DNA of 32,000 bases from Thermodesulfobacterium commune DSM 2178 (GTDB lineage: Bacteria; Desulfobacterota; Thermodesulfobacteria; Thermodesulfobacteriales; Thermodesulfobacteriaceae), in NCBI RefSeq assembly GCF_000734015.1, contig NZ_CP008796.1, positions 1,290,001 through 1,322,000 of the forward strand, written 5' to 3'. The translations under genes and the position numbers were made by a program. Position 1 is the first letter of the stretch. The number at the start of each line of letters is the position of its first letter. Shown in pieces: positions 2,993-32,000 of the stretch. A model generated the notes under the pieces. It saw only the letters and a program-made list of their open reading frames with translations. It was not told the origin of the DNA and ran no database searches.

Positions 2993-3706
2993 ATGTTAGT
3001 AAAAAATTGGATGACTGAAGAAGTGATTACCTTAGAAGAAGAGGAACCTATAACCAGGGCTATTCAACTTTTAAAGGAACACCAAATACGAAGGATTCCC
3101 ATAACCAGAGGAGGAAAACTAGTAGGAATTGTTACCCAAACAGACATAAAAGAGGCTACCCCACCAAAATTCGTAGGGGTTGACCTAAAAGAACTTTATG
3201 ACCTTTTTTTAAACCTAAAAGTAAAAGACATCATGACCCCAGACCCTATCACCGTATCTCCAGAAGATACCATAGAAAAAGCTTCTGTCCTTATGCTTGA
3301 AAACAAAATCTCTGGACTTCCGGTAGTTAATGAAAATAATTATGTTATAGGGATTATCACTCAAACAGACATTTTTAAACTTTTTGTTCAACTAACTGGG
3401 GCTTATTTCAGTCCTTATCATGTAGCCCTTTATATCAACTCACCCTATCAACTTCCTGAGATTTTAGAAATTTTTAAGAATTTACAAATAAATATTTATA
3501 CCATTTTTTGCTGGAGAGACGAATTTTGTATAGATGATACCTGTAAAAAAAGAGTTTTTATTCGTTTCCAAGCTGTTGAAGAGGCTAAAATAAAGGAAGC
3601 TTTGGAAAAACTTGAGACTAAGTTTGAAATAGCTGAATTTAAGAAAGACAATATAAAAGATATCCCCCAAAAACGGAAAGAAGAAAAAAATTTATTGGTT
3701 TTCTAA
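2993..3706 (+). CDS. CBS-domain pair protein with an ACT-like C-terminal domain (AcuB-like)
   Basis: Two CBS repeats (VITLEEEEPITRAIQLLKEHQIRRIPI..GKLVGIVTQTDI and PITVSPEDTIEKASVLMLENKISGLPVV..VIGIITQTDI) are followed by a ~90-aa alpha/beta tail. SD GGAGGGG lies upstream of ATG 2993. Confidence 0.7.
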   Translation: MLVKNWMTEEVITLEEEEPITRAIQLLKEHQIRRIPITRGGKLVGIVTQTDIKEATPPKFVGVDLKELYDLFLNLKVKDIMTPDPITVSPEDTIEKASVLMLENKISGLPVVNENNYVIGIITQTDIFKLFVQLTGAYFSPYHVALYINSPYQLPEILEIFKNLQINIYTIFCWRDEFCIDDTCKKRVFIRFQAVEEAKIKEALEKLETKFEIAEFKKDNIKDIPQKRKEEKNLLVF

Positions 3707-5572
3707 ATTTTCAGTATTTTCTTGATTCTGAGTCTCTGTATTCTCTGTATATAAAAAGAACCCTTGAGGTTTATGATTAGTTCCTTTCATTACGCTTAAC
3801 CAAACAGGACAAGCAACCCTTCCTCCTGTTTCCCCTCTTTCTAACGTCTTACCTGAATCATAACCAACCCAAACACCACAAGTATAGGTAGGTGTAAACC
3901 CCACAAACCAAGCATCTCTATATTCCTGGGTAGTACCGGTTTTTCCAGCTACCGGCACACCCAATCCCCTGGCACAAGTTCCTGTTCCATAAAGAACTAC
4001 TGCCTGTAGGAAATCATTCATTATAGAAGCAGTGTAAGGAGAAATTACCGGCTTAGCTACCACATCAGTTTTGTAAATAGGGGTTTTAGCAAACAAACTA
4101 TCTCTCACTTCTTCTATAAACTTAGGTTTTACCATACGACCTAAGTTAGGGAAAATAGTAAAGCTCCTTGTGAGCTCTATCGGAGTTAATTCATAAGAAC
4201 CAAGGGCTATACTATAATTAAAATCTCTAGGGATGTTAAGTTCTAATTTTTGAACCATATCATAAATTTTTTCTCTTCCTAGCATCAAAGCAAGCCTTAC
4301 TGCTACTACGTTTCTTGACTTGGCTAAGGCATCCCTTAAGCTTATAGGACCTAAATACTGCCCATCATAATTTCCAGGTGACCAATCTTTGCCCTGGTCG
4401 CCTCCAGGAAGAGTTATAGGTTCATCGGGAATTACATCCTCTGGAGAGACTACTCGATCTTCAATAGCCTTAGCCCAGATAAAAGGCTTAAACGCAGACC
4501 CAGGTTGTCTTTTAGCTAGAATAGCTCTATTATAAGGAGAAGCCAAATAGTTTCTTCCTCCGATAAGAACCCTTACTCCTCCGTTTTTGTTTTCCATACA
4601 AACTACTGCTATCTCTGGAGGTTCTCTGTTCGTAAACATACGACTAAGGGTGTTCATAAGGTTTTCATATGCCTTCTTTTCCCACTCTAAATCAAGAGTA
4701 GTATAGACTACAAGTCCCCCCCTCTCTACTACCTCAGAAGGGAATAATTTTTTAAGTTCTTCTTTTATCACATCTAAGAAGTAGGCTGCATAAACAGGAA
4801 TGTTAACATTTTTAGGGTTTAAATGTATAGGTTGAGATGAAATAGCCTGAGCTTTTTCAGGAGAAATAAAACCTACCTCTGCCATTCTTTTAAGCACATA
4901 GTTTCTTCTAGCTATAGAAAGATTATAATTTTGAAGGGGATTATATTTAGAAGGGGCTGCCGGTAAACCTGCCAAAACCGCTGCCTCGTTTAAGTCTAAC
5001 TCCCAGACATGTTTGTTAAAATAAGTAAGGGCAGCAGCTTCTACTCCATAAGCCCCTTCCCCTAAGTAAATATGATTCAAATATATGGTTAGAATCTGAT
5101 CTTTGGTTAGATATTTTTCAATTTGCCAGGCCAAAAACATCTCTTTGATTTTTCTTCTAAGCGTCCTTTCAGGAGAAAGGACAAGGGACTTAACTACCTG
5201 TTGAGTAATGGTACTACCGCCTTGGACTACCTTACCATGAACGATATTTTTGTAAAGTGCCCTTAATAAACTCCAAAAATCTATCCCTTTATGTTTATAG
5301 AAATTAGCATCTTCTGCAGCTAAAAAAGCTTGGATTACATGAGGAGGGATTTTATCTATAGGTACAAAAACACGCCTTACTGGACCGATAAAACCTACCA
5401 GATTCCCATGAATATCGTATACCAAATTTGTTTGTTCTGGTCGGTAGTTTTTAAGCTTAGAAATACTTGGGAGACTAACCTTAAGATAAATAAACCCAGC
5501 TGCTAAAATTATAGAGAAGAAAAGAAAAATCGATAAAACCAAAATACCTGTCAACTTAAAGACAGAATTCAT
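3692..5572 (-). CDS. mrcA: class A penicillin-binding protein (PBP1A-type transglycosylase/transpeptidase)
   Basis: N-terminal TM anchor. GT51 motifs EDANFYKHKGID, GGSTITQQ and RRKIKEM. Transpeptidase motifs SAFKP (SxxK), KSRN (SxN) and KTGTT (KTG). It converges on and overlaps the CBS gene by 15 nt. Confidence 0.9.
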   Translation of the reverse strand: MNSVFKLTGILVLSIFLFFSIILAAGFIYLKVSLPSISKLKNYRPEQTNLVYDIHGNLVGFIGPVRRVFVPIDKIPPHVIQAFLAAEDANFYKHKGIDFWSLLRALYKNIVHGKVVQGGSTITQQVVKSLVLSPERTLRRKIKEMFLAWQIEKYLTKDQILTIYLNHIYLGEGAYGVEAAALTYFNKHVWELDLNEAAVLAGLPAAPSKYNPLQNYNLSIARRNYVLKRMAEVGFISPEKAQAISSQPIHLNPKNVNIPVYAAYFLDVIKEELKKLFPSEVVERGGLVVYTTLDLEWEKKAYENLMNTLSRMFTNREPPEIAVVCMENKNGGVRVLIGGRNYLASPYNRAILAKRQPGSAFKPFIWAKAIEDRVVSPEDVIPDEPITLPGGDQGKDWSPGNYDGQYLGPISLRDALAKSRNVVAVRLALMLGREKIYDMVQKLELNIPRDFNYSIALGSYELTPIELTRSFTIFPNLGRMVKPKFIEEVRDSLFAKTPIYKTDVVAKPVISPYTASIMNDFLQAVVLYGTGTCARGLGVPVAGKTGTTQEYRDAWFVGFTPTYTCGVWVGYDSGKTLERGETGGRVACPVWLSVMKGTNHKPQGFFLYTENTETQNQENTENLENQ

Positions 5573-5660: not shown

Positions 5661-5780
<120 letters not shown>

Positions 5781-5838
5781 AACTTTAATATTTTTAACAA
5801 GTGAATGGGGTATCCTTTGGAACTTTTAAGCTGGTACT

Positions 5839-8864
<3,026 letters not shown>

Positions 8865-8944
8865 ACAGGAACCAGCTTAAAGATGCCAAAGGATACCCCT
8901 ATTCACTTGTCAAAGATCTAATTTTTCCACCACTTTTCATTAAG

Positions 8945-9020
8945 TGGTGGAGGTGAACGGATTCGAACCGTCGACCTCCGGCTTGCAAAGCCGGCGCTCT
9001 CCCAACTGAGCTACACCCCC
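8945..9020 (-). tRNA. tRNA-Ala (anticodon TGC), CCA encoded
   Basis: The reverse complement GGGGGTGTAGCTCAGTTGGGAGAGCGCCGGCTTTGCAAGCCGGAGGTCGACGGTTCGAATCCGTTCACCTCCACCA folds as a 76-nt cloverleaf. It has the G3:U70 Ala identity pair and the anticodon loop TTTGCAA. Confidence 0.95.
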
Positions 9021-9057
9021 ACGCCTTCCTCCTAAACCCATCCTCTAACCAAGAGAA

Positions 9058-9133
<76 letters not shown>

Positions 9134-9153
9134 GTAATCCGCTCACCCATTCC

Positions 9154-9166
9154 TTTCAAAGAACAT
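9154..9166 (-). promoter_or_regulatory. boxA-like antitermination element in the 16S-tRNA spacer
   Basis: The minus strand reads ATGTTCTTTGAAA, almost identical to the leader copy at 10886-10899. It resembles the bacterial rrn boxA (TGTTCTTTGAAAA / GCTCTTTAACAA type). Confidence 0.6.
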
Positions 9167-9180
9167 AAAAATTTATATAG

Positions 9181-9202
9181 AATAGCGTCCGCAAGGAGCC
9201 CC
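9181..9202 (-). other. 3' half of the 16S precursor processing stem
   Basis: AATAGCGTCCGCAAGGAGCCCC is the near-perfect reverse complement of 10862-10882 (GGGGCCCTTGCGAACGCTATT), with one G.U pair and one bulge. The two halves bracket the mature 16S, as RNase III stems do. Confidence 0.75.
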
Positions 9203-9217
9203 TAAAATTCTCCTTAG

Positions 9218-10791
<1,574 letters not shown>

Positions 10792-10861
10792 AATTTTGTC
10801 CTGGCCACCTGCCTATAAACAGGCCGGCCGCAACTTTCAATTTAATTTAAAAAGGAATTGC

Positions 10862-10882
10862 GGGGCCCTTGCGAACGCTATT
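10862..10882 (-). other. 5' half of the 16S precursor processing stem
   Basis: Complementary to 9181-9202 (see that feature). Confidence 0.75.
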
Positions 10883-10885
10883 CAA

Positions 10886-10899
10886 TTTTCAAAGAACAT
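10886..10899 (-). promoter_or_regulatory. boxA-like antitermination element in the rrn leader
   Basis: The minus strand reads ATGTTCTTTGAAAA, just upstream of the 16S processing stem. Related copies follow each upstream promoter: GTCTTTTGAAAA at 10955-10966, GTTCTTTGTTAA at 11046-11057 and at 11145-11156. Confidence 0.6.
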
Positions 10900-10909
10900 T
10901 TTTAATAAA

Positions 10910-10937
10910 AAATTAAAACAACTTTTAAATTTGTCAA
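10910..10937 (-). promoter_or_regulatory. rrn promoter P1 (closest to 16S)
   Basis: Minus strand: perfect -35 TTGACA (10937-10932), 16-nt spacer, -10 TAATTT (10915-10910). The region is AT-rich. Confidence 0.55.
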
Positions 10938-10973
10938 GAGCCTTTGAAAAGAAATTTTCAAAAGACAAAATTT

Positions 10974-11001
10974 AATATAACACAATCTGTCTTTTTGTCA
11001 A
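10974..11001 (-). promoter_or_regulatory. rrn promoter P2
   Basis: Minus strand: CTCTTGACA -35 (11001-10996), 16-nt spacer, -10 TATATT (10979-10974). Confidence 0.6.
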
Positions 11002-11075
11002 GAGGCTTAAGCACCCTCCTAAAAACAACTCCTACCCTTCACTTCTTAACAAAGAACGACTTAGCGTGAAAATTA

Positions 11076-11103
11076 AATTTAACACAGCCCTGTAAATTGT
11101 CAA
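11076..11103 (-). promoter_or_regulatory. rrn promoter P3
   Basis: Minus strand: CTCTTGACA -35 (11103-11098), 16-nt spacer, -10 TAAATT (11081-11076). Confidence 0.55.
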
Positions 11104-11175
11104 GAGGGTTTTTAAATTTTATTTCTAATTTTTTCTTACCTCTTTTAACAAAGAACAATCTTAAACTTGATAAAA

Positions 11176-11203
11176 AGAATACACTAAATTTTTGGGTTGT
11201 CAA
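11176..11203 (-). promoter_or_regulatory. rrn promoter P4 (weakest -10)
   Basis: Minus strand: GTTGACA -35 (11203-11198), 16-nt spacer, -10 TATTCT (11181-11176). Confidence 0.4.
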
Positions 11204-11577
11204 CCCCTTATTCAAAAAATTTATATTTTTAAATTACATGGCATCAAGATTAGACGACTACACAATTTTTACCTTGTTTTTTAGCTTTATAAAGATTATT
11301 GTCTGCGATAAAAAGCATCTCTCTTAAACTGTTTTTAAGCTCAAGTGCTCCTCCGATAGAGTGTTAAATCTACTAAAAAAGTTTAGGAAGGGAAGAGAGG
11401 AGGGGTTGGGAGGGTTGGATTTGTGAGGGGTAGAGGAGATGGGATCTAAACTTTATTACTGGAATAAGGGGTTAAAGTGGGTTTTTAAAGGGGATTTTCC
11501 AAGAATAAGGTTGAGGATTTTACAGGGTTTTAAACATGTTTAAAAAAGAATTTATGAGGCTTTGCTGAAAAATGGAT

Positions 11578-11655
11578 GGTTCCAACCTTTTATACAAAGG
11601 TTGGAACCAAGGTTGGAACCAAATGGGCAAGGTTGGAACCTTCCTGGTTCCAACC
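11578..11655. repeat. array A: five 10-bp GGTTSSAACC units
   Basis: GGTTCCAACC (11578-11587), GGTTGGAACC (11599-11608, 11611-11620, 11631-11640), GGTTCCAACC (11646-11655). Units 1/2 and 4/5 form perfect inverted repeats, giving potential hairpins of 13 and 12 bp. Confidence 0.9.
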
Positions 11656-11663
11656 TTGTGGTT

Positions 11664-12305
11664 TTATTTTGGGAGAATGTTAAAAAGTTTCAAGTATTCC
11701 ATATCTTCTTTGCGGTTTTCATAGATAGAAATTTTTATCCATTGAGGTTTTGAGGCTATCATGCTCACAGAGTAAACCATGATGTAATCGGGTTCTTTGG
11801 TAGAGCTTAAGAATATCCCTGGATACTGTTCACATCCTTTTTTGATGCATGTTCTTAGTGAGGTAAGAATTTTTTCTATAGGAGGATTGGTAATTTTAAG
11901 AACCTGGAAAACCGAGTTTAAAAGCAACAAGCCATCTTTATCTGATTTGGAAAGGCAATTAAAGCCAAGTTTTCGGTCAATTTCACAATTAATGACAATT
12001 TCTAAGTGAGGTGGCCAGTAATTTATATCGTCTGGCTTGGTCTTTGTTTTTTCCATATAGGTCACCGCTCCAATATGAGTAAAAGATGGCGAGTGGATAT
12101 TAAGTTCATAATGTTTGCTATTTTCTTTGTCCTTTTTAGAAAGTCTGGTGATTTTTTTATTTTGTTGCATTAAGCGATCAATTTGATGTAAAAGGTCGGG
12201 AGTGATTTTTCTCGGTTGACCAGCTATGTTTTCACTAAAAATGCCAACGAGAATAAAAAGACCAAAGATAATAGCAAGGGTATTAAAAAATTTCTTTTTC
12301 TTCAT
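11664..12305 (-). CDS. membrane-anchored or secreted protein of unknown function (prophage-remnant cargo)
   Basis: 213 aa. The N-terminal MKKKKFFNTLAIIFGLFILVGIF signal/anchor is similar to that of the 12838-13221 product. SD AGGAGGTG precedes the ATG. The rest has no motif I recognise. Confidence 0.65.
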   Translation of the reverse strand: MKKKKFFNTLAIIFGLFILVGIFSENIAGQPRKITPDLLHQIDRLMQQNKKITRLSKKDKENSKHYELNIHSPSFTHIGAVTYMEKTKTKPDDINYWPPHLEIVINCEIDRKLGFNCLSKSDKDGLLLLNSVFQVLKITNPPIEKILTSLRTCIKKGCEQYPGIFLSSTKEPDYIMVYSVSMIASKPQWIKISIYENRKEDMEYLKLFNILPK

Positions 12306-19948: not shown

Positions 19949-21287
19949 GACACTTGTCAAGAGAATTGTGTCTCCTTATAAAATCTCTTTACAAACATTT
20001 GCCTCAATTCGTATAAAGCAGACTTAATTAAAGGAAGTGGTTTTTGCCATCTCGTTTTCTGAATCCGACTTACTGTTATGTATATCGCAACCTCTGCTGT
20101 CTTGATTGATTGAAAATATCCCCCTGTATTTACCCTTATCAGCTCTATCCTGCTATTTATATTCTCAACCACATTCGTCGTGTATATATACCTCCTCACC
20201 CCCTCAGGATATTTCTTATAAACAAAATAATGCTCCTTCTTTTTCAAAAGTCCCTTTATATAAGCTGGATACTTCTTCTCATAACTCTTACATAATTCCT
20301 CAAATCTAATTAAGGCCCTCTCATACTCCTCTATCCTCTTTATAATGCTTAACTCCTCATAAAATTTTTTAGCATCCTGCTTAGACATGTTCCTGTTGAT
20401 GTTCCTTTGCATGTGTACAAAACAAAGCTGATGATCTGTCTCAGGAAAAAGGGCTTTTATGGCTTGAGCAAGGCCAGGAAAATCATCACTCACTATTACC
20501 ATAACCCTCTTAACTCCCCTCTTTATCAAATCATTAAGTATCTGGAGCCAGTCCTCCTTCGTCTCTGAACCAAAATAAATGTAATAAGAAAGTAAATTTT
20601 TTCTTCCCTCCATATCTATTCCGATGATATTATAAATAACTGCTTTTCTGATTCTGTTGGCTTCGGTATCTTTTATCTGAGTATGATAAGCGTCTATAAA
20701 CATAGCAAACAAATTTTCTGGCAATTCTTTGGTTTTTAATTCTTTGGCTTGGTTATACAATTCTTCTTTAATTTCTTCTATTTGTTCTGGAGAGTAGGGA
20801 AGTTTCATAGATTGCAAGAGGGCTTTGATTTTATTGGGGGAGTAGCTTTGGAGAACGAGGTTAAGGATAAAGTCCTGGAAAGATTCATCAGCTTTTTGCC
20901 ATTCAGGAGGAAGAATAGCAGGTCTGAATTCAGATTTTCTATCTCTTGGGACAGAGATACCAAGGTTACCTAAGAAACAGGCAAGTTGTCTTTCATAGTA
21001 ACCATTAGCTTTATTATCAATACTATCTCTAAGGAATATTTCTCTTTCTTTTTTCATGAGAGCGTTTAAGAGGAGTGCAGCAGCCATTTTGATACCCTCT
21101 TTTGATTCAATTTTTGAGATTTCACTTAAAACTTTTTCTAAATCTAAGTCTAAGTTTTTCATTTTACAGACCTCCTGGTTAGTTTAGTCTTTTAGGTTTT
21201 ATGTTATCATTAATTTAAAAAATATTAAAAATTTTTATTATGCCTCTAAAATATTTTATTAAAAGACACAATTTATATTCTACTCCC
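19949..21287 (-). mobile_element. IS256-family insertion sequence (~1.34 kb)
   Basis: 8-bp direct repeat CAACTTGT at 19941-19948 and 21288-21295. Sub-terminal inverted repeats AATTGTGTCTYYTWATAAAAT at 19964-19984 and 21273-21253. A single transposase ORF fills the element. Confidence 0.8.
19957..21162 (-). CDS. IS256-family (mutator-type) transposase
   Basis: 401 aa with IVSDDFPGLAQAIKALFPETDHQLCFVHMQRNINRN, the signature region of Transposase_mut/IS256. Confidence 0.9.
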   Translation of the reverse strand: MKNLDLDLEKVLSEISKIESKEGIKMAAALLLNALMKKEREIFLRDSIDNKANGYYERQLACFLGNLGISVPRDRKSEFRPAILPPEWQKADESFQDFILNLVLQSYSPNKIKALLQSMKLPYSPEQIEEIKEELYNQAKELKTKELPENLFAMFIDAYHTQIKDTEANRIRKAVIYNIIGIDMEGRKNLLSYYIYFGSETKEDWLQILNDLIKRGVKRVMVIVSDDFPGLAQAIKALFPETDHQLCFVHMQRNINRNMSKQDAKKFYEELSIIKRIEEYERALIRFEELCKSYEKKYPAYIKGLLKKKEHYFVYKKYPEGVRRYIYTTNVVENINSRIELIRVNTGGYFQSIKTAEVAIYITVSRIQKTRWQKPLPLIKSALYELRQMFVKRFYKETQFS

Positions 21288-22482: not shown

Positions 22483-22528
22483 GAAAATATTGCTTGTTTC
22501 TTTTTTACAAATTGCATAAATTTGCAAT
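22483..22528 (+). promoter_or_regulatory. conserved box 1 (putative late promoter)
   Basis: GAAAATATTGCTTGT (22483-22497) is repeated exactly at 24985-24999 and 31959-31973. The 46 nt are ~80% identical to 31959-32000. TTGCTT, 19 nt, CATAAA would place the TSS at the ATG of the gpU-like gene (no SD). A tandem CTTTATAAT x2 lies at 22462-22479. Confidence 0.5.
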
Positions 22529-23050
22529 ATGCAGTATGCCCAAATTGGAGATGTAGTTTTTGAAGTCCTTGCATATAAAGAGCATAAAGAGGAATTAGAG
22601 TTTCCTTATGCAAGACATGAGACAATCAAGCCACCTTCAAGTTTACAATTTATGGGTGGAAAGGAGCTTAGAAAAATTAGTTTATCTGTGCGTTGGCATA
22701 GAGAATGGTGTAATCCTGAGGAAGAAAAGAAAAAGCTTGAAGAGTTTGCAGTAAAAGGAGAATATGCCAAATTTATTTTGGCGGAAAAGGTGATCGGAGA
22801 TTTCGTTATTGAAAAAGTTTTTTTTCAGATTCAGCAAATAGATGCTTTTGGAAAGCCAGTAATTATTGATGCAGATTTAGAATTGACAGAATATATTAAA
22901 AAAGAAATGAAAAAGAAGAAGATAGTATCTAAAAAAGCTCCGATGAAAAAAACTAAAAGCACAGCAAGTAGTCAGCCAAAATATCAAGTTATACAAGAGC
23001 AAAGCAAAGATAAATCAATTTCTATGCCGAAAATAGTTAAGGTATCATGA
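22529..23050 (+). CDS. P2 gpU-like tail protein
   Basis: IGDVVFEVL...YARHETIKPPSSLQFMGGKELRKISLSVRW...GDFVIEKV follows the Phage_P2_GpU pattern. It has a Lys-rich C-terminal tail. Confidence 0.7.
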   Translation: MQYAQIGDVVFEVLAYKEHKEELEFPYARHETIKPPSSLQFMGGKELRKISLSVRWHREWCNPEEEKKKLEEFAVKGEYAKFILAEKVIGDFVIEKVFFQIQQIDAFGKPVIIDADLELTEYIKKEMKKKKIVSKKAPMKKTKSTASSQPKYQVIQEQSKDKSISMPKIVKVS

Positions 23051-25594: not shown

Positions 25595-26086
25595 ATGCGT
25601 AGGTCAAAAGCAAAGCTTTATGATTTGGTAGAGAGGATCATTTATCTTTACGAAAATGAGAAAATGACCATAAGAGATATTGAGGCTTTACTGCGTTCTG
25701 AAGGTTATGACATTTCTAAATCAAGCATTCATAGAACAATAAAAAGCTATACTGAGCTTGCAGAAGAATATAAAAGAACAGCAGAAGAAACTAAAGCTCT
25801 TATTGAAGCTTTAAGAGAACAACCAGCAAGCTATCAGATGGAAGCTATTTTAACCATGCTTGTTTCTAAAGTTTTTAATTTTGTAAGGAGCATTGAAGAG
25901 CTTGAGTTTGAAGATCCTCATGAACTTGTTTTAGCTTTGAATAGACTTGCTTCTTCGGTAGAAAAAATGCAGAGATATAGAGAAGAATTAGAAGCAAAGA
26001 TGGCCAAAGTTGAGTTAGAAGCAAAGAAGAGAAATATAGATAAAGAGTTTATTGAATATGTCCGCAAGGAAATATTTGGGGCGTAA
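25595..26086 (+). CDS. terminase small subunit, Mu gp27-like (DUF3486-like)
   Basis: N-terminal HTH (MTIRDIEALLRSEGYDISKSSIHRTIKSY) plus a coiled-coil C-terminus. It lies immediately upstream of and overlaps the large terminase. Confidence 0.6.
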   Translation: MRRSKAKLYDLVERIIYLYENEKMTIRDIEALLRSEGYDISKSSIHRTIKSYTELAEEYKRTAEETKALIEALREQPASYQMEAILTMLVSKVFNFVRSIEELEFEDPHELVLALNRLASSVEKMQRYREELEAKMAKVELEAKKRNIDKEFIEYVRKEIFGA

Positions 26087-27389
26087 ACCTTTACTTTTGT
26101 CTTATCAGCAGAGGATGCTTAAGGCTATTTCTGAACACAAGTATTCAATTTTTATGTATGCAAGACAAACTGGGAAAAGCTTTGCTGTTGCGTTATGGGC
26201 AGTTCTTCGTGCTTTAGAAAAATCTAATCATCTTGTTGCAATTATTTCTCCAACTGAGCGTCAAAGTAAAGAGCTTATGGAAAAGGTTAAAAGACATGTT
26301 GAATTTTTAAAAGTTGTAGGTGCTGAATATGGAGAGAAATTTTTTGAAGATGCTAAGATTTCTGTTCTTGAAGTGAAATTTCCAAATGGAAGTAGAATTG
26401 TTGGGCTTCCAGCAAATCCTGATGGTGTAAGAGGGCTCACTGGAGATGTAGTATTAGAAGAGGCAGCTTTCTTTCAGGATGGTTTTAAGGTCTATCAAGC
26501 AATCTTCCCAAGCATTACAAGAAGCAAGGACTATAAGCTTGTTGTAATATCAACCCCTAAGGGGAAACTTAATCTTTTTTATCATCTTTGGACTTCATCT
26601 GAAAATAATGACTTATGGTATCGGGAAAAGTTAACTATCTATGATGCTGTAGCTGAAGGACTTGATGTAGATGTGGAAGTTTTAAAGAAAGGTATTCCTT
26701 CAGATGAAATGTGGCGATCTGAATATCTTTGCGAATTCGTTGATGAGGCTGAAGCTTTTATACCATATGAATTGATACAATTTTGTGAGGCTGAAGATGT
26801 AAGAGAAAAAGATATAAGAAAACTGCAAGGAGAAATTTTTATTGGGGTTGACATAGGAAGAAGGCATGACTACACAGCTATTGCTATTGTGGAGAAGCTT
26901 GGTGATGTTCTTTATCTTAGGAATATGGAAATCTTAAAACAGGTCCCTTTTTCAGAGCAGTTTGCAATTTTAAGACATTTAGCAGGATACGCTCGCAAGA
27001 TGGCAATTGATGAAACTGGAATTGGTATGCAACTTGCTGAAGAGCTAACAAGGCTTTATGGGGAGCTAAAAATTATACCAGTATATTTCACAGCGAAAGC
27101 AAAAGAAGAAATGGCAACAAGACTGAAAACAAAATTCCAGGATAGACTTATAAGAATTTATCCTGACCCAGATTTAAGAGAAGACCTACATTCTGTTAGA
27201 AAAGTAGTGACTGAGGCAGGCAATATCAGACTTGAGAGCGTATCTGATGATGGACATGCAGATAGGTTTTGGGCTTTAGCTTTAGCGGTTCATGCAAGTT
27301 CTGGAGAGGAAAGAAAAATTTTTGTCCCACCGTGTTTTGTTTCACCAAGAAGAGAGGGGTTAACTTATGGGCTTAATCAGCTGGTTTAA
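26052..27389 (+). CDS. terminase large subunit (Mu gp28-like)
   Basis: Walker A-like ARQTGKS. Walker B-like GDVVLEEAAF. RNase H-like nuclease half (IGVDIGRRHDYTAIAIVE ... DDGHADRFWALALAV). An alternative ATG start is at 26058. Confidence 0.85.
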   Translation: MNMSARKYLGRKPLLLSYQQRMLKAISEHKYSIFMYARQTGKSFAVALWAVLRALEKSNHLVAIISPTERQSKELMEKVKRHVEFLKVVGAEYGEKFFEDAKISVLEVKFPNGSRIVGLPANPDGVRGLTGDVVLEEAAFFQDGFKVYQAIFPSITRSKDYKLVVISTPKGKLNLFYHLWTSSENNDLWYREKLTIYDAVAEGLDVDVEVLKKGIPSDEMWRSEYLCEFVDEAEAFIPYELIQFCEAEDVREKDIRKLQGEIFIGVDIGRRHDYTAIAIVEKLGDVLYLRNMEILKQVPFSEQFAILRHLAGYARKMAIDETGIGMQLAEELTRLYGELKIIPVYFTAKAKEEMATRLKTKFQDRLIRIYPDPDLREDLHSVRKVVTEAGNIRLESVSDDGHADRFWALALAVHASSGEERKIFVPPCFVSPRREGLTYGLNQLV

Positions 27390-28770
27390 AGAAAAATTTG
27401 GAGAAAAGCCGAAAAAGGAAAGCTTTAAGGCAAGCTCAATTGAACCTGTAAGTGTTTTAATTCCTCGGACTAAAATTGTTCAGTATAGTTTTATAAACCC
27501 TCGTTATCCTCGTGAATGGCTATTAACCATAGAGAAGGCTGTATTTGGGAATCAAGATTTAAGCATGGTTTTTGAATTATTCGTTGACCTTGCAAACTCT
27601 GGGCATCAAGTGCAGGTCGTAGGGAAACAAGCAGAAGAAGCTAAAACCGAAATTGATAATTTAGCAGCACGATTAAACACTGATAGTCTCGTCAATCAAC
27701 TTTTTGCTCAACTTGCTTTATATGGGGCTGTAAGCATTGAAGTAATAGTTGAAGAAGATTTGTCTGGAGTTCAAAAGGTAGTTCGTGTTCCTGCTCATAC
27801 TATTTACTTTAAATATAATGAGAAAACCCGGGATTTTGAACCTTATCAATGGATACCACCTGAGGACCCAATTAAGCTAAATTTAAATACTTACCTTTAT
27901 ATTCCAATGTTTACCCTTGATGGTTCTCCTTATGCTATACCTCCTTTTTTAGCATCTTTATCTCCACTTGAGATGCAAGAAGAATTCAAAGTTGAGCTAA
28001 AGAATCTTGCTAAAAAGATAGGGCTTCTTGGGTTTTTTGACATAGAAATTCCCAAGCTTGAACCTAAGCCAACTGAGACAGAAACTGAGTATTTTAAAAG
28101 ACTTGAAGAACATTTAAATAAGGTTGCAGAACAAGTAGCTGAAAATATACAAAAGGGGATTTTTCTTCATTATGAGGGGACCAAAGCAGAATTTAAAGAA
28201 ATTGCTGGAAAGACTTCTGATGTGGATAAAATCCTTGCCCATATCAATAGGTGGCTTATTACTGGGGCAAAAGCACAGCCAAGTCTGGTTGGAATTTCAG
28301 AGGGTATAACTGAAACCTGGGCAGTTGTTAGCTATGAACAGTTTGCAAGACAATTGCAGAACTATCAAAGAATAGTAAAAAGAGCTTTGGAATATATCTA
28401 TAAGCTACATTGTGCGTTAAAAGGTTTTGATATTGAAGATATAAACATCATTTTTAATCCTGTGCCAAAGCTAAAGCCTGAAGCTGATATTGAGGCATTT
28501 ACTAAAAAAGCTGATGCAATAACCAAACTTATTGAAACAGGAGTAATAACTATAGATGAAGCAAGAGAAATGCTTGGATTAAACCCAATAGGAGGTGAGA
28601 AAGATGCAAGAGATGAAAAAGTATTTTCTAAGGTTTGGGATAGCTCTTCTGATAGCTTTGCCGTTTCTTTTGATAGCAGGAAGAGAAGCTCTAAGGATAT
28701 TTCTTTACAAGATTGCGATGTGTGCAGTAGGGGTGGCTTTGGCAGAACTTGTCTGGGTAGCGTTTTTTAA
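27367..28770 (+). CDS. portal protein (Mu gp29 / DUF935-like); 3' ~55 codons are doubtful
   Basis: Size and position between the terminase and MuF. The body is acidic and helical. The last 167 nt overlap a well-supported membrane-protein gene and translate to atypical sequence (SSSDSFAVSFDSRKRSSKDISLQDCDVCSRGGFGRTCLGSVF). Confidence 0.65.
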   Translation: MGLISWFKEKFGEKPKKESFKASSIEPVSVLIPRTKIVQYSFINPRYPREWLLTIEKAVFGNQDLSMVFELFVDLANSGHQVQVVGKQAEEAKTEIDNLAARLNTDSLVNQLFAQLALYGAVSIEVIVEEDLSGVQKVVRVPAHTIYFKYNEKTRDFEPYQWIPPEDPIKLNLNTYLYIPMFTLDGSPYAIPPFLASLSPLEMQEEFKVELKNLAKKIGLLGFFDIEIPKLEPKPTETETEYFKRLEEHLNKVAEQVAENIQKGIFLHYEGTKAEFKEIAGKTSDVDKILAHINRWLITGAKAQPSLVGISEGITETWAVVSYEQFARQLQNYQRIVKRALEYIYKLHCALKGFDIEDINIIFNPVPKLKPEADIEAFTKKADAITKLIETGVITIDEAREMLGLNPIGGEKDARDEKVFSKVWDSSSDSFAVSFDSRKRSSKDISLQDCDVCSRGGFGRTCLGSVF

Positions 28771-28882
28771 GCCTGTCTATGGACCAACGGAGAATTTAGA
28801 TGCAGTGGAAAGATTAAGCATATTGTTTTTCCGGGGCATTTTATACGCTGGGATCCTCATCGGACTGATGCTTGGGCTTTAA
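28604..28882 (+). CDS. holin candidate (3 TM, dual-start motif)
   Basis: SD GGAGGTG 6 nt before ATG 28604. MQEMKKYF provides Met1 and Met4 separated by charged residues. Three TM segments (FGIALLIALPFLLIAG, IAMCAVGVALAELVWVAFF, ILFFRGILYAGILIGLMLGL). It lies directly upstream of the endolysin. Confidence 0.65.
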   Translation: MQEMKKYFLRFGIALLIALPFLLIAGREALRIFLYKIAMCAVGVALAELVWVAFFKPVYGPTENLDAVERLSILFFRGILYAGILIGLMLGL

Positions 28883-28883
28883 A

Positions 28884-29483
28884 ATGAGGAGGGCTTTGAG
28901 TAATACGATAATTCTATTTGGGCTTGTGTGGACTGCTCAGGCTCAGGCTGGGATTGTGGATAGATGCATGAAGTATGCACCGCTTGTAATTCGTGAGGCA
29001 AGATATCATATCGGGATGAATGCACCAGCTCATCTCTTTCTCGGGCAAATAGAGCAGGAGTCCAGATGTAATGAAAGGGCTACAGCTTTTGATGGCGGGA
29101 TGGGGCTTGGGCAGTTTATGCCTGAGACCGCAAAAGAGCTACACGAGAGGTATAAGGTGCTTCAGGAGTTCCCTTTTAATCCCTATGACCCGAGATGGAA
29201 TATAAGGGCTCTAATCCTCTATGATAGGGAATGTTATAACTCGGTTTCCTGTCGGGGCTGGTATTTTGCCTTCCGAGCCTATAACGGAGGAGCTTCCCTG
29301 CTAAACAAGGAGATAGCCAGGGCTGGAAGCTGTGATGTAGAAAAGGTTGAAGCCCACTGTAAGCGAAAGGTCATCAGGCTTAAGAATGGCTCTCTACTTG
29401 ACCTATGCGTAGTGAACATTGAGTATCCTTATCGCATCTTTGAGAAGTCTGAGAAGTATAAAAGGAGGCTTGAGGTTAGATGA
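28884..29483 (+). CDS. endolysin: secreted lytic transglycosylase (SLT domain)
   Basis: Signal peptide MRRALSNTIILFGLVWTAQAQA/G. Catalytic region GQIEQESRCN and GMGLGQFMPETA. The track start is TTG 28872. Confidence 0.8.
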   Translation: MRRALSNTIILFGLVWTAQAQAGIVDRCMKYAPLVIREARYHIGMNAPAHLFLGQIEQESRCNERATAFDGGMGLGQFMPETAKELHERYKVLQEFPFNPYDPRWNIRALILYDRECYNSVSCRGWYFAFRAYNGGASLLNKEIARAGSCDVEKVEAHCKRKVIRLKNGSLLDLCVVNIEYPYRIFEKSEKYKRRLEVR

Positions 29484-29484
29484 G

Positions 29485-29871
29485 ATGATAGGCTTGCTAA
29501 GCTGGAGAATTTTAAAGTATTTGCTTATCGGGGCTCTCTTTTTTTTAGTTGGTTTTAAGTCGGCTTGGTATATACAAAGTTTAAAGATAGAGAAAATGAG
29601 GCTTGAGGCTAAAAAGCTTGAAGAAGCTTTAAAACAGTGTGAAGGAGCTAACGAGAGCAATCTAAAAACTATCTCTGCTTTAAAGCTTGATATTGCTAAG
29701 GCTAACAAGTTATGCAGTGCAAGGGCAAAGGTCTATAGACATACGCTTAAGAAACTTCAGGAGATAGATGCTTTAGAACCAAAGAGCGAGGGAGGAAATG
29801 AAACGGATAGCTCTGACCCTATTTTGCTTGAACTTAATCGGATGTTCCCCTCTGGGGCATACGACAAGTAA
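29485..29871 (+). CDS. i-spanin (Rz-like)
   Basis: ATG 29485 is 1 nt after the endolysin TGA. N-terminal TM (ILKYLLIGALFFLVGF), then a coiled coil (LKIEKMRLEAKKLEEALKQCE...). Confidence 0.7.
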   Translation: MIGLLSWRILKYLLIGALFFLVGFKSAWYIQSLKIEKMRLEAKKLEEALKQCEGANESNLKTISALKLDIAKANKLCSARAKVYRHTLKKLQEIDALEPKSEGGNETDSSDPILLELNRMFPSGAYDK

Positions 29872-30100
29872 GATTGTTAAGACTGAGTATGTGAGACCGG
29901 ATCTTCCAGAAGTTCCGGAAGAGCCGAGCTACTATAAAGTGGAATTTTTCAAGGCAAACGGGAGCTACTGTTTAGACCCTGAAAACGCAAAGAGCTTACT
30001 AAAAAACATAGAGCTTATGCGTGGCTACTGCTCTGAGCTTAGGCTTATCCTTGAGAGTTTGCAATGGAAGGACAATGGGACAAAGAAGGAAACGAAATAG
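29798..30100 (+). CDS. o-spanin (Rz1-like outer-membrane lipoprotein), overlapping the i-spanin 3' end
   Basis: MKRIALTLFCLNLIGC contains a lipobox (LIG/C). It starts 74 nt before the i-spanin stop in another frame, the classic overlapped spanin architecture. Confidence 0.75.
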   Translation: MKRIALTLFCLNLIGCSPLGHTTSKIVKTEYVRPDLPEVPEEPSYYKVEFFKANGSYCLDPENAKSLLKNIELMRGYCSELRLILESLQWKDNGTKKETK

Positions 30101-31371
30101 TAGAGAAACTCTACAAACTTCTTTATCCTTCTCTTGGTTCTTCTTTAAGAGATGCCTTAGCAGATATTCTGCGTAAAGCAACATATTTTATAAGCTTTGA
30201 TGATTTAACTCGCTACATTTTAATTACCCTTGAAGAAAAATTTCAGCTTCCTGAAAAAGTTAAGTTTGCACTTAAGCTTGAGCTTGAAAAGATTTATAAA
30301 GAGACTCAAGCTAAGGCACTTTCTGAGGTTGGGATAATTTTTAAACCTGAGCTTTCCATACCAGATTTTAGAGCTATTTCATACGCAGAAAAGCTTCATG
30401 ATTTTTATCTTGGGAAATTTTTCAGAGGAGATAGAGAAATCCGGCTAAGAATTGTTAAATGGTTCTCAAAATATTATCTTGAGGAAGGAAACCCAATTGG
30501 GCGTGGTCAGGCTGGTATAAGAGAGTTTCTTGATAGGTTTGGGGAATACATACAACCTCAAACAGAATGGAAGGCAAGACAAATCATAGATACTTCAGTT
30601 AATTTTTTGCGTAATTCTGCAAGAATTCGTGCTATGCAAAAAGCAAGGATTAAACGCTATAGATGGGATGCAGTGGGGGATAGGCTTACATGCAAGACTT
30701 GCAGGAGTTTTGATGGAAGAACATGGGAAGTAACAGAAGCGGTAAGGATCCTTGATGCTATTGAGAGTTCAGAGGACCCAAGAGCTATTGTAGATTATAA
30801 GCCCTTTGTTACTACTCCTTATAAAGGACCATCTTCTCAAGCTCCCTCCCGATTACCGCCTCTTCATCCTCATTGTAGGTGTAGAATAGTTGCGGAGATA
30901 GAAGAAAAAGAGATACCAGTAACCATAGAGAGACCAGCATTTGCAAAAGATAATCCTATTCAAAGAGACTTAGAGGATGAATATAGAGCTTTAAGCCCTA
31001 AGGAGCTTGAAAATAAAATTAAAGCTCATCTTGGAAGTGATTGGTTCAGACCAGTTAAAGGTGAAAAAGGAATAAATGCTTATAAATCAGCAAAAAAAGA
31101 AGCAGAGAGGCATTTTTTAAAACACGGGCATGAATTTGGTTTTAAAACCCCTGAAGAATATTATCACTCAGCCTATGAGGTGATAAAAAAGCCTGACGAA
31201 GTATACATTGAAAGGGTTAAAGATAAAACCTTTTACATTTTTCGAAAAGGTGATAAAGTAGTAATATCAAGTGATGATGATCTTGCAATAAAAACTTATT
31301 TTAAGTTGAATAAGCCATTTGAAACCTTTTTAAAAGAGAGGAAAAGAGATGGACTTATCAAGGTTCTCTGA
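30064..31371 (+). CDS. MuF (Mu gp30 / SPP1 gp7) head morphogenesis protein with a ~150-aa C-terminal extension (toxin-like)
   Basis: MuF core ...RQIIDTSVNFLRNSARIRAMQ...RYRWDAVGDRLTCKTCRSFDGRTWEV...PPLHPHCRCRIVAE ends near residue 285. The extension ends with ERHFLKHGHEFGFKTPEEYYHSAYEVIKKPDEVYIERVKDKTFYIFRKGDKVVISSDDDLAIKTYFKL. Confidence 0.8.
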   Translation: MEGQWDKEGNEIVEKLYKLLYPSLGSSLRDALADILRKATYFISFDDLTRYILITLEEKFQLPEKVKFALKLELEKIYKETQAKALSEVGIIFKPELSIPDFRAISYAEKLHDFYLGKFFRGDREIRLRIVKWFSKYYLEEGNPIGRGQAGIREFLDRFGEYIQPQTEWKARQIIDTSVNFLRNSARIRAMQKARIKRYRWDAVGDRLTCKTCRSFDGRTWEVTEAVRILDAIESSEDPRAIVDYKPFVTTPYKGPSSQAPSRLPPLHPHCRCRIVAEIEEKEIPVTIERPAFAKDNPIQRDLEDEYRALSPKELENKIKAHLGSDWFRPVKGEKGINAYKSAKKEAERHFLKHGHEFGFKTPEEYYHSAYEVIKKPDEVYIERVKDKTFYIFRKGDKVVISSDDDLAIKTYFKLNKPFETFLKERKRDGLIKVL

Positions 31372-31699
31372 TAAAGAATTAATTGAAGAATGGGCATTTA
31401 GTTTAGCATCTCAAGAAGCTATAGAAACTTTTTTTGATGATTATTCAGCAGAAGTAACCTTACCCTTTCGCACTGAAATCCATAAAAGAGGTCTTGACAA
31501 CCACCCAAAAGTTATAGAAGCAGATAAAAAGCTAATTCAATATGCTTTAAAAGAAAAGCCTTATCCTCCTGTTATAACCGATAATTATGAGCCACCTTTA
31601 GAATACTGGTGGTGGCACATAGATAAAATTGGAGAAAAAACCTATCCAGCTGAGCTACTTCCTGAGCCCCTCAGAGAACTTTATTTACAAGAATTTTAA
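31349..31699 (+). CDS. small acidic protein; candidate immunity partner of the MuF C-terminal domain
   Basis: 116 aa. SD GAGAGG. Overlaps the MuF stop by 23 nt. Trp-rich motif PPLEYWWWHIDKI. No family that I can name. Confidence 0.55.
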   Translation: MDLSRFSDKELIEEWAFSLASQEAIETFFDDYSAEVTLPFRTEIHKRGLDNHPKVIEADKKLIQYALKEKPYPPVITDNYEPPLEYWWWHIDKIGEKTYPAELLPEPLRELYLQEF

Positions 31700-31741
31700 A
31701 AAGCCTTTTATTTTGGCTTTAAAGCCCCTCTTTTTAAGGGG
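31700..31741 (+). terminator. two weak hairpins after the MuF operon
   Basis: AAAGCC(31700-31705)/GGCTTT(31715-31720) and CCCCT(31725-31729)/AGGGG(31737-31741). No clean trailing T-run. Confidence 0.25.
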
Positions 31742-31766
31742 GTAAGTATTATACCCTTACCCCCTT

Positions 31767-31886
31767 CGTTTACGAGCGTTTACGCATCGTTTACCTTGCG
31801 TTTACTGGCATCAATTCTTATTTAGAAGGAATTGAGGTAAACGAATGTCCGTTTACTTTGTTTATTTCTTGTTTACGAGCGTTTAC
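31767..31886. repeat. iteron-like CGTTTAC array around a central dyad
   Basis: CGTTTAC at 31767, 31777, 31788 and 31799 (10-11 bp phasing). Dyad CAATTC(31812-31817)/GAATTG(31829-31834). Inverted GTAAACG at 31837-31843. Further direct copies at 31850, 31870 (TGTTTAC) and 31880. The 17-mer GTTTACGAGCGTTTAC is repeated at 31768-31783 and 31871-31886. Confidence 0.9.
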
Positions 31887-31894
31887 AAAGAAAT

Positions 31895-31952
31895 TTTTGA
31901 GCCAATTTTGAGCCTTTTTTTAAAAAGCTTAACCCTTATTAAACCCTTATTA
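31895..31952 (+). repeat. two pairs of 11-bp tandem repeats
   Basis: TTTTGAGCC at 31895-31903 and 31906-31914 (11-bp period). AACCCTTATTA x2 at 31931-31952. Confidence 0.9.
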
Positions 31953-31958
31953 AATTCA

Positions 31959-32000
31959 GAAAATATTGCTTGTTTTTCTTTTTTAAATTGTATAAAGTTG
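31959..32000 (+). promoter_or_regulatory. conserved box 3 (putative late promoter; window ends inside it)
   Basis: GAAAATATTGCTTGTTTTTCTTTTTTAAATTGTATAAAGTTG aligns with box 1 (22483-22524) along its whole length. Confidence 0.5.

Follow-up and report, generated by a model that had tools for sequence, protein, structure and literature searches.

A MuF head protein with a predicted RNase-type toxin domain and a candidate immunity gene in a Mu-like prophage of Thermodesulfobacterium commune

Does a phage head protein of Thermodesulfobacterium commune end in a toxin, and is the small gene that overlaps it the antidote? The question arises from a 32,000-nucleotide (nt) stretch of strain DSM 2178 (contig NZ_CP008796.1, positions 1,290,001 to 1,322,000), which we call the window and in whose numbering coordinates are given. 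Close to its right end, a gene for a MuF minor head protein runs into a short open reading frame (ORF). An earlier note, made from the sequence alone, had read this arrangement as a MuF protein with a toxin-like C-terminal module and a downstream immunity gene. Having followed up this idea, we conclude that the locus probably (at a probability of about 0.72) encodes a MuF-family polymorphic toxin and its cognate immunity protein, within the head-morphogenesis region of a Mu-like prophage. The reading is built on homology, fold, residue conservation, gene linkage and cassette exchange; enzymatic activity, substrate, neutralization, packaging and delivery are the parts of it that we infer. The features that carry the argument are listed here.

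30064 to 31371, plus strand: MuF-toxin gene, 435 amino acids (aa), ATG start; a minor head protein fused to a C-terminal domain resembling a ribonuclease (RNase) toxin
30064 to 30918, plus strand: MuF core, residues 1 to 285, ending at HPHCRCRIVAE
30919 to 31065, plus strand: conserved linker or pre-toxin region, residues 286 to 334, ending in the KGINAY junction
31066 to 31368, plus strand: predicted toxin domain (the warhead), residues 335 to 435, modeled with a colicin-like BECR fold; its start lies at nt 31066 to 31080
31111 to 31134, plus strand: helix motif H350-F-L-K353-H354-G-H-E357, the predicted active site, aligned with K608, K610, H611 and D614 of colicin D
31294 to 31305, plus strand: motif T411-Y-F-K414 on strand beta4, the [TS]xxK element of Tox-ColD, aligned with S677-G-W-K680 of colicin D
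31349 to 31699, plus strand: candidate immunity gene, 116 aa, ATG start; acidic product modeled as all-alpha; 23-nt overlap with the MuF gene
31080 to 31619, plus strand: exchangeable cassette of ~540 nt, with the warhead and the first ~90 codons of the immunity candidate
31736 to 31766, plus strand: perfect 11-bp hairpin, an inverted repeat without a T-run

Both ORFs and their 23-nt overlap are as the note had described them. The longer product matches Phage_Mu_F (PF04233) over residues 168-275 (nt 30565-30888; E = 7e-9, 36.8 bits against a cut-off of 29.6), TIGR01641 (E = 3e-13, 50 bits against 39.65) and PHROG 115, "minor head protein" (E = 2e-18). These matches identify it as a minor head protein of the MuF/SPP1-gp7 type, from a Mu-like prophage. 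Orthologues of its core, 54-57% identical, occur in Caldimicrobium, Hydrogenobacter and viral contigs, and seven loci encode relatives of the core. We refer to comparison loci by L numbers and to proteins by P numbers. The proposed end of the core near residue 285 agrees well with a naturally short orthologue in L010 (307 aa), which terminates 9 residues past HPHCRCR. Beyond the core lies the linker, and its profile positions 2-50 are matched by MuF-type carriers only. The linker is 87.8% identical in L008, and it therefore belongs with the core and not with the exchanged cassette described below.

What is the domain that follows the linker? It starts at nt 31066 to 31080, close to the position of about 31066 proposed before, and the peptide quoted in the note is indeed encoded there. 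Its product is basic, with an isoelectric point (pI) of 9.4. Searches with the single sequence gave little: the C-terminal 151 aa had no meaningful match in Pfam, PHROGs, NCBIfam or PADLOC, and a PDB search with the C-terminal module returned nothing. A profile of 3 sequences, run with HMMER in an exhaustive search against 1.84 billion representatives, retrieved 111 proteins (representative clusters), which form two groups. The first contains MuF-length proteins (414-777 aa) that match over the whole 150-aa C-terminal module. In the second, made up of proteins of 150-296 aa, a ~75-aa core alone matches, always at the C terminus. From this search we built a 44-sequence domain profile (A4), and only with a profile did homology to a PDB entry surface. 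Profile positions 12-92 match residues 7-88, close to the full chain, of 8EY4_A at E = 9.1e-14 (E-values of our local hmmsearch and profile scans refer to small custom databases). This chain, named "PT-VENN domain-containing protein", is the CdiA-CT of the contact-dependent inhibition (CDI) toxin-immunity complex of Escherichia coli O32:H37. The colicin D tRNase domain scored E = 0.04 with the same profile and E = 1.3e-4 (probability 54%, 70 columns) in hhalign with the colicin D segment; on family member P0032, PF11429 reached E = 0.035, below its cut-off.

Structure prediction led in the same direction. An AlphaFold2 (AF2) model of the domain, computed with the family alignment, has a mean predicted local distance difference test score (pLDDT) of 91.8. 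The order of its elements is a pre-alpha helix, an alpha helix, four beta strands, a short helix and a strand (H2-24, H29-41, E45-51, E54-61, E64-69, E75-80). As modeled, the domain has the colicin-like BECR topology described in bioRxiv 10.64898/2026.08.28.747851, with the catalytic helix before a four-stranded sheet. In a Foldseek search of the PDB the sole credible match was again 8EY4_A, with probability 1.00, template-modeling (TM) scores of 0.57/0.64 and a root-mean-square deviation of 3.4 A over 83 columns. The best matches in BFVD, two phage proteins of MuF length (456 aa and, named "minor capsid protein", 514 aa), had probability 1.00 and TM of about 0.6. The likeness to CdiA-CT-like or BECR RNase-type domains proposed in the note was thus borne out by the profile match to 8EY4_A (E = 9e-14), the Foldseek probability, the colicin-like topology and a residue alignment with colicin D. 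The named families suggested alongside it did not hold up: neither the window protein nor 101 family members showed PBECR1-5, EndoU or barnase. The Pfam models of PBECR1-5 and DUF6883 gave no match to the window protein at E<=10 or to the 101 members scanned, among which no Pfam model covers the toxin domain at all. A tblastn search of 50,697 GenBank phage records with the warhead returned no match. The name "pyocin large subunit-like protein", given to the fragment P0003 by the Joint Genome Institute, was a helpful clue that could not be traced to a model, and we set it aside. By analogy, we predict that the terminal domain is a metal-independent RNase, and our most likely guess for its substrate, also by analogy, is the tRNA anticodon loop.

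Are the residues that such an enzyme would need present? In colicin D, K607, K608, H611, D614 and S677 are essential, and the Tox-ColD signature comprises [KH]K, Hxx[ED], [ST] and [TS]xxK (Zhang et al. 2012, PMC3482391); H611 is the general base (PMC9990079). We took the 103-residue chain 1TFO_A as residues 595-697, a numbering offset that we inferred and that is self-consistent, because the five residues named by Zhang et al. all land on the right letters. HMMER and hhalign alignments then place K607 on R349, K608 on H350, K610 on K353, H611 on H354, D614 on E357, S677 on T411 and K680 on K414 of the window protein. Hxx[ED] is present as H354-G-H-E357 and [TS]xxK as T411-Y-F-K414; the [KH]K position reads R349-H350, and residue 349 varies in the family. 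Of 102 family members, 101 have H354, 99 K353, 95 H350, 96 E or D at position 357, 101 Y366, and 99 S or T at 411. The pattern picked out earlier by eye, H-x2-K-H-x2-E-F followed by a Tyr and a late Thr, is thus conserved throughout the family and not a product of chance. Since the catalytic-type residues are near-invariant, the toxin domain is predicted from its sequence to be catalytically competent. A divergent subgroup of warheads (L004, 15-611, and L029-L032) has H-x2-K-R in place of H-x2-K-H, so that Arg replaces the predicted general-base His. In L029-L032 these warheads pair with shorter members of the immunity family, which end in WWWHLDK(I/V) and lack the YPAELLPE tail.

What defines polymorphic toxins is that unrelated delivery scaffolds share one C-terminal domain (Jamet et al. 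2017, PMC5576092), and the warhead has several carriers. It is shared by CdiA (8EY4), MuF and an Rhs protein, P0043, where it is C-terminal to an Rhs-associated core (TIGR03696, E = 1.5e-11); a toxin domain held in common with other polymorphic-toxin families is what MuF toxins typically display. A Phage_min_cap2 protein in L029 and ~515-aa phage proteins of L030-L032, the latter without family assignment, end in the same domain. Most of the 111 clusters are membrane-anchored and, by eye, Firmicutes-like. In these carriers the C-terminal domain is preceded by the anchor and by a low-complexity acidic linker, and often there is also a zinc ribbon at the N terminus (Pfam zf_Tbcl in 13). About 80 of the 102 warhead-family members analyzed (P0036-P0117) are such non-phage proteins of 150-296 aa, with a ~80-aa domain that has all the catalytic-type residues. 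A zinc ribbon and membrane anchor joined to a warhead is an odd architecture for an RNase toxin.

We then considered the 116-aa ORF. GAGAGG at 31336-31341 lies 7 nt 5' of its ATG, the second of the two starts, and its translation is probably coupled through the overlapping start. The note had called it acidic and had singled out EYWWWHIDKI; its pI is indeed 4.63, opposite in charge to the toxin domain, and the motif falls in the most conserved part of its family. That family comprises 162 proteins, all annotated as "hypothetical" and none with a Pfam domain. Members with a named source come mostly from thermophiles (Thermodesulfobacterium, Thermodesulfovibrio, Aquificaceae, Deferribacter, Hippea and Thermodesulfatator). 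The N-terminal two-thirds of the family are variable and lie inside the swapped cassette. An AF2 model of the window protein is all-alpha, with a mean pLDDT of 86.6. Searches of Pfam, PHROGs, NCBIfam and PADLOC with the ORF gave no meaningful match.

Do the two genes travel together? In 14 distinct loci a member of the immunity family lies directly 3' of the toxin domain, in most cases with an overlap of 23-55 nt: window/L007, L008/L009, L005 (Caldimicrobium), L006/L011 (Hydrogenobacter), L002/L003, L014/L015, L016, L017, L018/L019, L023 (Deferribacter autotrophicus), L027, L029, L030 and L031/L032. When viral loci were retrieved by the immunity profile alone, a warhead was found directly upstream in all 9 of 9. 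Conversely, in L010, which is closely syntenic with L006, a short MuF gene is followed directly by the next head gene, with neither warhead nor small ORF. The linkage claimed for the downstream ORF thus extends well beyond the window, and the ORF is absent beside a toxin-less MuF. An exception is L012, where the Rhs-borne warhead is followed by an unrelated Cys-rich 90-aa ORF.

Members of the immunity family also occur in other settings. L001, in a 1.9-Mb genome, holds an orphan: a truncated toxin tip (profile positions 38-104 only, the catalytic helix being absent) next to an intact ORF of the family, with the same 23-nt overlap and adjoining Mutator-type insertion sequence (IS) fragments. 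In Thermodesulfobacterium commune, P0118 (L020/L021, 4001-4684) consists of two copies of the 116-aa family fused in tandem (227 aa). It is encoded in the chromosome between rho and an IS fragment, and a six-frame scan found no toxin remnant there. Its Pfam scan gave just two sub-threshold matches, to unrelated DUFs. From its sequence, P0118 may be a domesticated double immunity protein.

The most telling comparison is between phages that are nearly identical except for the cassette. L007 matches the window protein throughout (core 96.8%, linker 100%, toxin domain 96.0% identical). In L008/L009, the core is 95.8% and the linker 87.8% identical, and the toxin domain is only 49.5% identical; the downstream ORF is 41% identical to the 116-aa ORF. 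A second comparison of the window with L008, made together with that of L003 below, gave 93% for the core, 52% for the toxin and 46% for the immunity ORF. Divergence begins directly past the shared KGINAY motif. At the nucleotide level the window is 87-100% identical to L008 as far as 31079, about 60% at 31080-31319, 43-58% at 31320-31619, and 83-92% again at 31620-31919; blastn finds no similarity at 31277-31605. The sharp breaks at about 31080 and 31620 indicate that the exchanged unit is ~540 nt. L003 shows the reverse pattern, with a 5'-truncated core 68% identical to that of the window, a warhead 89% and a downstream ORF 84% identical. Comparison of MuF orthologues, a check proposed in the note, thus revealed C-terminal polymorphism after a conserved N-terminal region, as is described for MuF toxins. 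In the chromosomal remnants L002 and L003, the MuF gene is cut at the equivalent of residue 182 and abuts an inverted 232-aa ORF (L002 60-758 and L003 87-785, minus strand). By eye we had suspected a further BECR nuclease in this ORF; it matched neither Pfam nor the toxin profile, and the idea is unsupported. After the toxin-immunity pair these loci have gp25 alone and then host genes, and they look like a decayed or rearranged prophage that retained the pair.

How might such a system work? As a minor head protein, the product would be seated in the capsid through its MuF core (residues 1-285), with the linker (286-334) joining the core to the ~100-residue BECR-fold warhead. In the predicted pocket, the role of general base would fall to H354, with H350, K353, E357 and T411 making up the rest of the site. 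The warhead would be made late, alongside the head and lysis proteins, at a time when free RNase would be harmful to the phage's own translation. In the producing cell the 116-aa protein, acidic, all-alpha and co-translated, would bind to the basic warhead and block it, and late phage protein synthesis could then continue. The toxin would leave the virion with the DNA, and passage through portal and tail would strip off the inhibitor; in recipients that have no matching immunity protein, the RNase would cut RNA. The warhead and the presumably specificity-determining N-terminal two-thirds of the immunity protein are swapped between phages as one ~540-nt cassette. The benefit has been seen as competition of lysogens with non-lysogens (PMC5576092) or as host takeover and anti-defense (PMC5512222). 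Orphan immunity copies in host chromosomes favor a real cost to recipients.

Several results weigh against this interpretation. On the side of the toxin, the window protein matched no curated toxin model in Pfam, NCBIfam or PADLOC, including Colicin_D (PF11429) and PBECR1-5; the link to colicin D is marginal in both profile comparisons, and colicin D was not among the 50 best Foldseek matches in the PDB. A literature search on 8EY4 and O32:H37 CDI found no publication giving the activity of that toxin. The partner raises further doubts. The C-terminal third of its family, PLxxWWWHxDKIxxKxYPAELLPExLRxxYL, is almost invariant, which is atypical for fast-evolving immunity proteins. Foldseek found nothing in the PDB better than E = 4.6 for the model of the 116-aa protein. 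Comparison of the family with PDB chains, including the partners in the 8EY4 and colicin D complexes, gave no significant match (best E = 0.21), and nine diverse members, the window ORF among them, had no credible Pfam match, so that the family is neither ImmD nor Imm64. The linkage has exceptions as well. L013 encodes a MuF protein with a warhead and has no immunity-family member in the locus, and in L004, L020 and L022 immunity-family members lie nowhere near a toxin gene; in L004 the ORF directly 3' of the toxin is unrelated to the family, a member of which is found 2.5 kb away. Finally, toxin and immunity identities across 9 loci correlate only weakly (Spearman 0.31, from non-independent pairs). 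The global correlation is weak because identities saturate at 35-50%, and only the close comparisons are informative. As for L013, its MuF-warhead gene (3001-4755, P0011) is followed directly by gp25. It reads EQFEMHG where the window protein has RHFLKHG, so that H350 is replaced by Q and K353 by M. Judging from its sequence, this may be an attenuated or inactive variant for which an inhibitor is no longer needed.

The invariant C-terminal third can be taken in a different way. The 116-aa family may be a two-part immunity protein of a new fold, and host chromosomes would keep domesticated copies of it against toxins injected by phages. In such a protein, an invariant plug (PLxxWWWHxDKIxxKxYPAELLPE) may dock on the invariant RNase pocket, and the variable N-terminal two-thirds may set the specificity and be swapped together with the warhead. 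The domesticated copies may be the tandem-fused double copy of T. commune and the standalone copies beside housekeeping genes. We offer this extension tentatively and regard it as rather doubtful; if true, it would be a form of immunity against phage effectors that PADLOC does not catalogue.

The same parts might also serve another purpose. Iyer et al. (PMC5512222) argued that BECR RNases fused to MuF or portal proteins are virion-delivered effectors against RNA-based host defenses. Along these lines the warhead would be injected to help infection, for instance by cutting host tRNAs or defense RNAs early, and would not be a weapon against competitors; the 116-aa protein would be an assembly-time inhibitor that silences the RNase during virion building. 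The position of the gene in the late head and lysis region, where free RNase would damage late translation, fits such a role, as does the conservation of linker and junction together with the head protein. Against it, diversification of the cassette with a co-swapped inhibitor is classic toxin-immunity dynamics, and the warhead is common to CdiA and Rhs proteins, which are interbacterial weapons. Orphan and tandem-fused inhibitor genes in hosts are, moreover, expected if recipients gain by neutralizing an incoming protein. On balance, we regard an infection-promoting role as unlikely.

Least of all do we favor a non-toxic, RNA- or DNA-binding structural part of a MuF subfamily, with the 116-aa ORF as a head-assembly or chaperone factor: an inactive BECR-type MuF-C domain has been proposed in phage Mu gp30 (Iyer et al., PMC5512222), many Mu-like head modules retain the domain, the linker and the downstream ORF as a set, the invariant third of the small protein suggests a conserved partner and not an arms race, and L013 has the domain without the ORF, but this is very improbable given that the catalytic-type residues are almost invariant even in non-phage carriers, unlike those of an inactivated domain, that L010 lacks both domain and ORF when compared with syntenic L006, which makes them accessory, that CdiA and Rhs toxins end in the same domain, and that L013, the sole carrier without the ORF, has lost H350 and K353.

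A polymorphic toxin with its immunity gene thus remains the reading that we prefer, and the surroundings of the locus are those of a prophage. The left part of the window is host chromosome, with genes for a topoisomerase and penicillin-binding protein 1 (PBP1) and an rRNA operon at 5662-10791. The prophage genes then follow in the order S24 repressor, helix-turn-helix transposase-like ORF, AAA ATPase, an insertion of a Mutator-family IS, gpU, gpD, TerL, portal, a holin-like ORF, an SLT endolysin, spanin-like ORFs and MuF. A MuF gene next to terminase and portal genes in a prophage is what Jamet et al. (2017) describe for MuF polymorphic toxins.

26052 to 27389: TerL
27367 to 28770: portal-like ORF

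The note had also described hairpins and a large non-coding region behind the two genes. The hairpins are there, the 11-bp one at 31736-31766 and a terminator-like stem at 31833-31860; the non-coding stretch 3' of the immunity candidate is about 300 nt and hardly deserves to be called large. The 31736-31766 hairpin likely marks the end of the transcription unit; as it has no T-run, it is only a putative terminator. The next gene, judged by comparison with L008, encodes a gp25 baseplate homologue and starts about 5 nt beyond the end of the window. Within the intergenic stretch, CGTTTAC occurs 7 times (six direct, one inverted) in 120 nt, at 31767-31886; in the entire 32-kb window there are 9, where chance would give 1.5. 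The close relatives L007 (3 copies) and L008/L009 (4 copies) retain the cluster, and L002/L003, L005 and L006 do not. The copies may form an array of sites to which a regulator of the downstream baseplate operon binds. A promoter-like element of ~55 nt (...AATTCAGAAAATATTGCTTGTTTCTCTTTTTAAAATTGTATAAACTTGCAATATG) occurs twice in the prophage, at 22483-22533, directly 5' of the gpU-like gene (22529), and at 31950-32000, 5' of the gp25-like gene beyond the window end, and L007 and L008 conserve it. To the eye, TTGCTT and TGTATAAA in it resemble a -35 box and an extended -10 box, and the ATG follows with hardly any leader.

The lysis cassette, at 28595-30100 between the portal and MuF genes, occupies an unusual place, where it splits the head module. 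Its members are a holin-like membrane ORF of 95 aa, an endolysin with an SLT domain (E = 5e-12) and a pair of overlapping spanin-like ORFs, of which one has a lipoprotein-type signal, LIGCSP; the order is the same in L008. The IS encodes a Mutator-family transposase (Transposase_mut, E = 3e-63) at 19957-21162 on the minus strand, and it is inserted in the prophage in opposite orientation. Fragments of the same transposase family adjoin the orphan immunity copies in L001 (8274-9371) and L020 (5486-5824), which hints that this IS family takes part in the decay or movement of toxin-immunity modules. On the host side, the rRNA operon is complete (5S, 23S, two tRNAs and 16S, minus strand) and lies at a distance of ~1 kb from the prophage's apparent left end. 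The listed ORFs at 5994-7542 are spurious and fall within the 23S gene. The region 7542-11664, which has no ORF of at least 90 aa, was considered as a CRISPR array and rejected, as it belongs to the rRNA operon. A perfect 12-nt tandem repeat, AAGGTTGGAACC (2.2 copies, 11597-11622), lies at the approximate boundary between the operon and the prophage.

What does the locus add? MuF-borne colicin D-type toxins were catalogued in 2012, when MuF was listed among the carriers of Tox-ColD (Zhang et al. 2012, PMC3482391), and the current view of how such systems work is unchanged. New are a warhead subfamily missing from curated libraries and a family of candidate immunity proteins, whose fold is unmatched and whose invariant motif is unusual. 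MuF toxins are widespread and few are characterized; going by the accessible part of the sources, those few are pyrophosphokinases or ADP-ribosyltransferases. The locus is a compact, predicted RNase-type example, with a solved relative (8EY4) and clear predictions of catalytic residues. Swapped cassettes on near-identical phage backbones, together with a natural toxin-less phage, make cognate and non-cognate immunity easy to test. Annotating both families would improve the detection of toxins in thermophile prophages and metagenomes.

Among known systems, the closest solved relative of the warhead is the CdiA-CT of E. coli O32:H37 (8EY4), which has the same H-x2-K-H-G-x-E helix and T-x-F-K strand motifs. 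The match covers 81 of 88 residues at an identity of just about 22-30%. That toxin, too, was crystallized with an immunity partner, whose chain has no detectable similarity to the 116-aa protein. Delivery differs: the CdiA toxin is borne on a filament (type V secretion, after a PT-VENN junction) and the window warhead on a phage head protein. Colicin D (Tox-ColD; PDB 1V74, 1TFO; PMC3482391) combines a BECR fold, as modeled for the warhead, with a pre-alpha helix that carries the catalytic His; in the alignments H350, H354, E357 and T411 are the counterparts of its essential K608, H611, D614 and S677. Unlike colicin D, the window protein has R-H for the [KH]K dipeptide and an immunity candidate that is neither ImmD nor Imm64, and the tRNA-Arg specificity of colicin D cannot be assumed for it. 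PBECR1-5 and DUF6883/BECR-Tox3 (PMC5512222; bioRxiv 10.64898/2026.08.28.747851) are also phage BECR RNase-like domains at MuF C termini; DUF6883 has a conserved downstream partner, DUF4926, and the partner in the window belongs to a different, unnamed family. The characterized Apk2-type MuF toxins are, according to the available part of the source (PMC12226406), adenosine 3'-pyrophosphokinases and not RNases. The window warhead family is not among the Pfam-defined MuF toxin domains. With the MuF polymorphic toxins at large (Jamet et al. 2017, PMC5576092), the system shares an N-terminal MuF domain, a variable C-terminal toxin, a place in the head module of a prophage and a small ORF (<150 aa; here 116 aa) directly downstream. 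The hosts of the window-type system are thermophiles, from Thermodesulfobacteriota, Aquificota and Deferribacterota.

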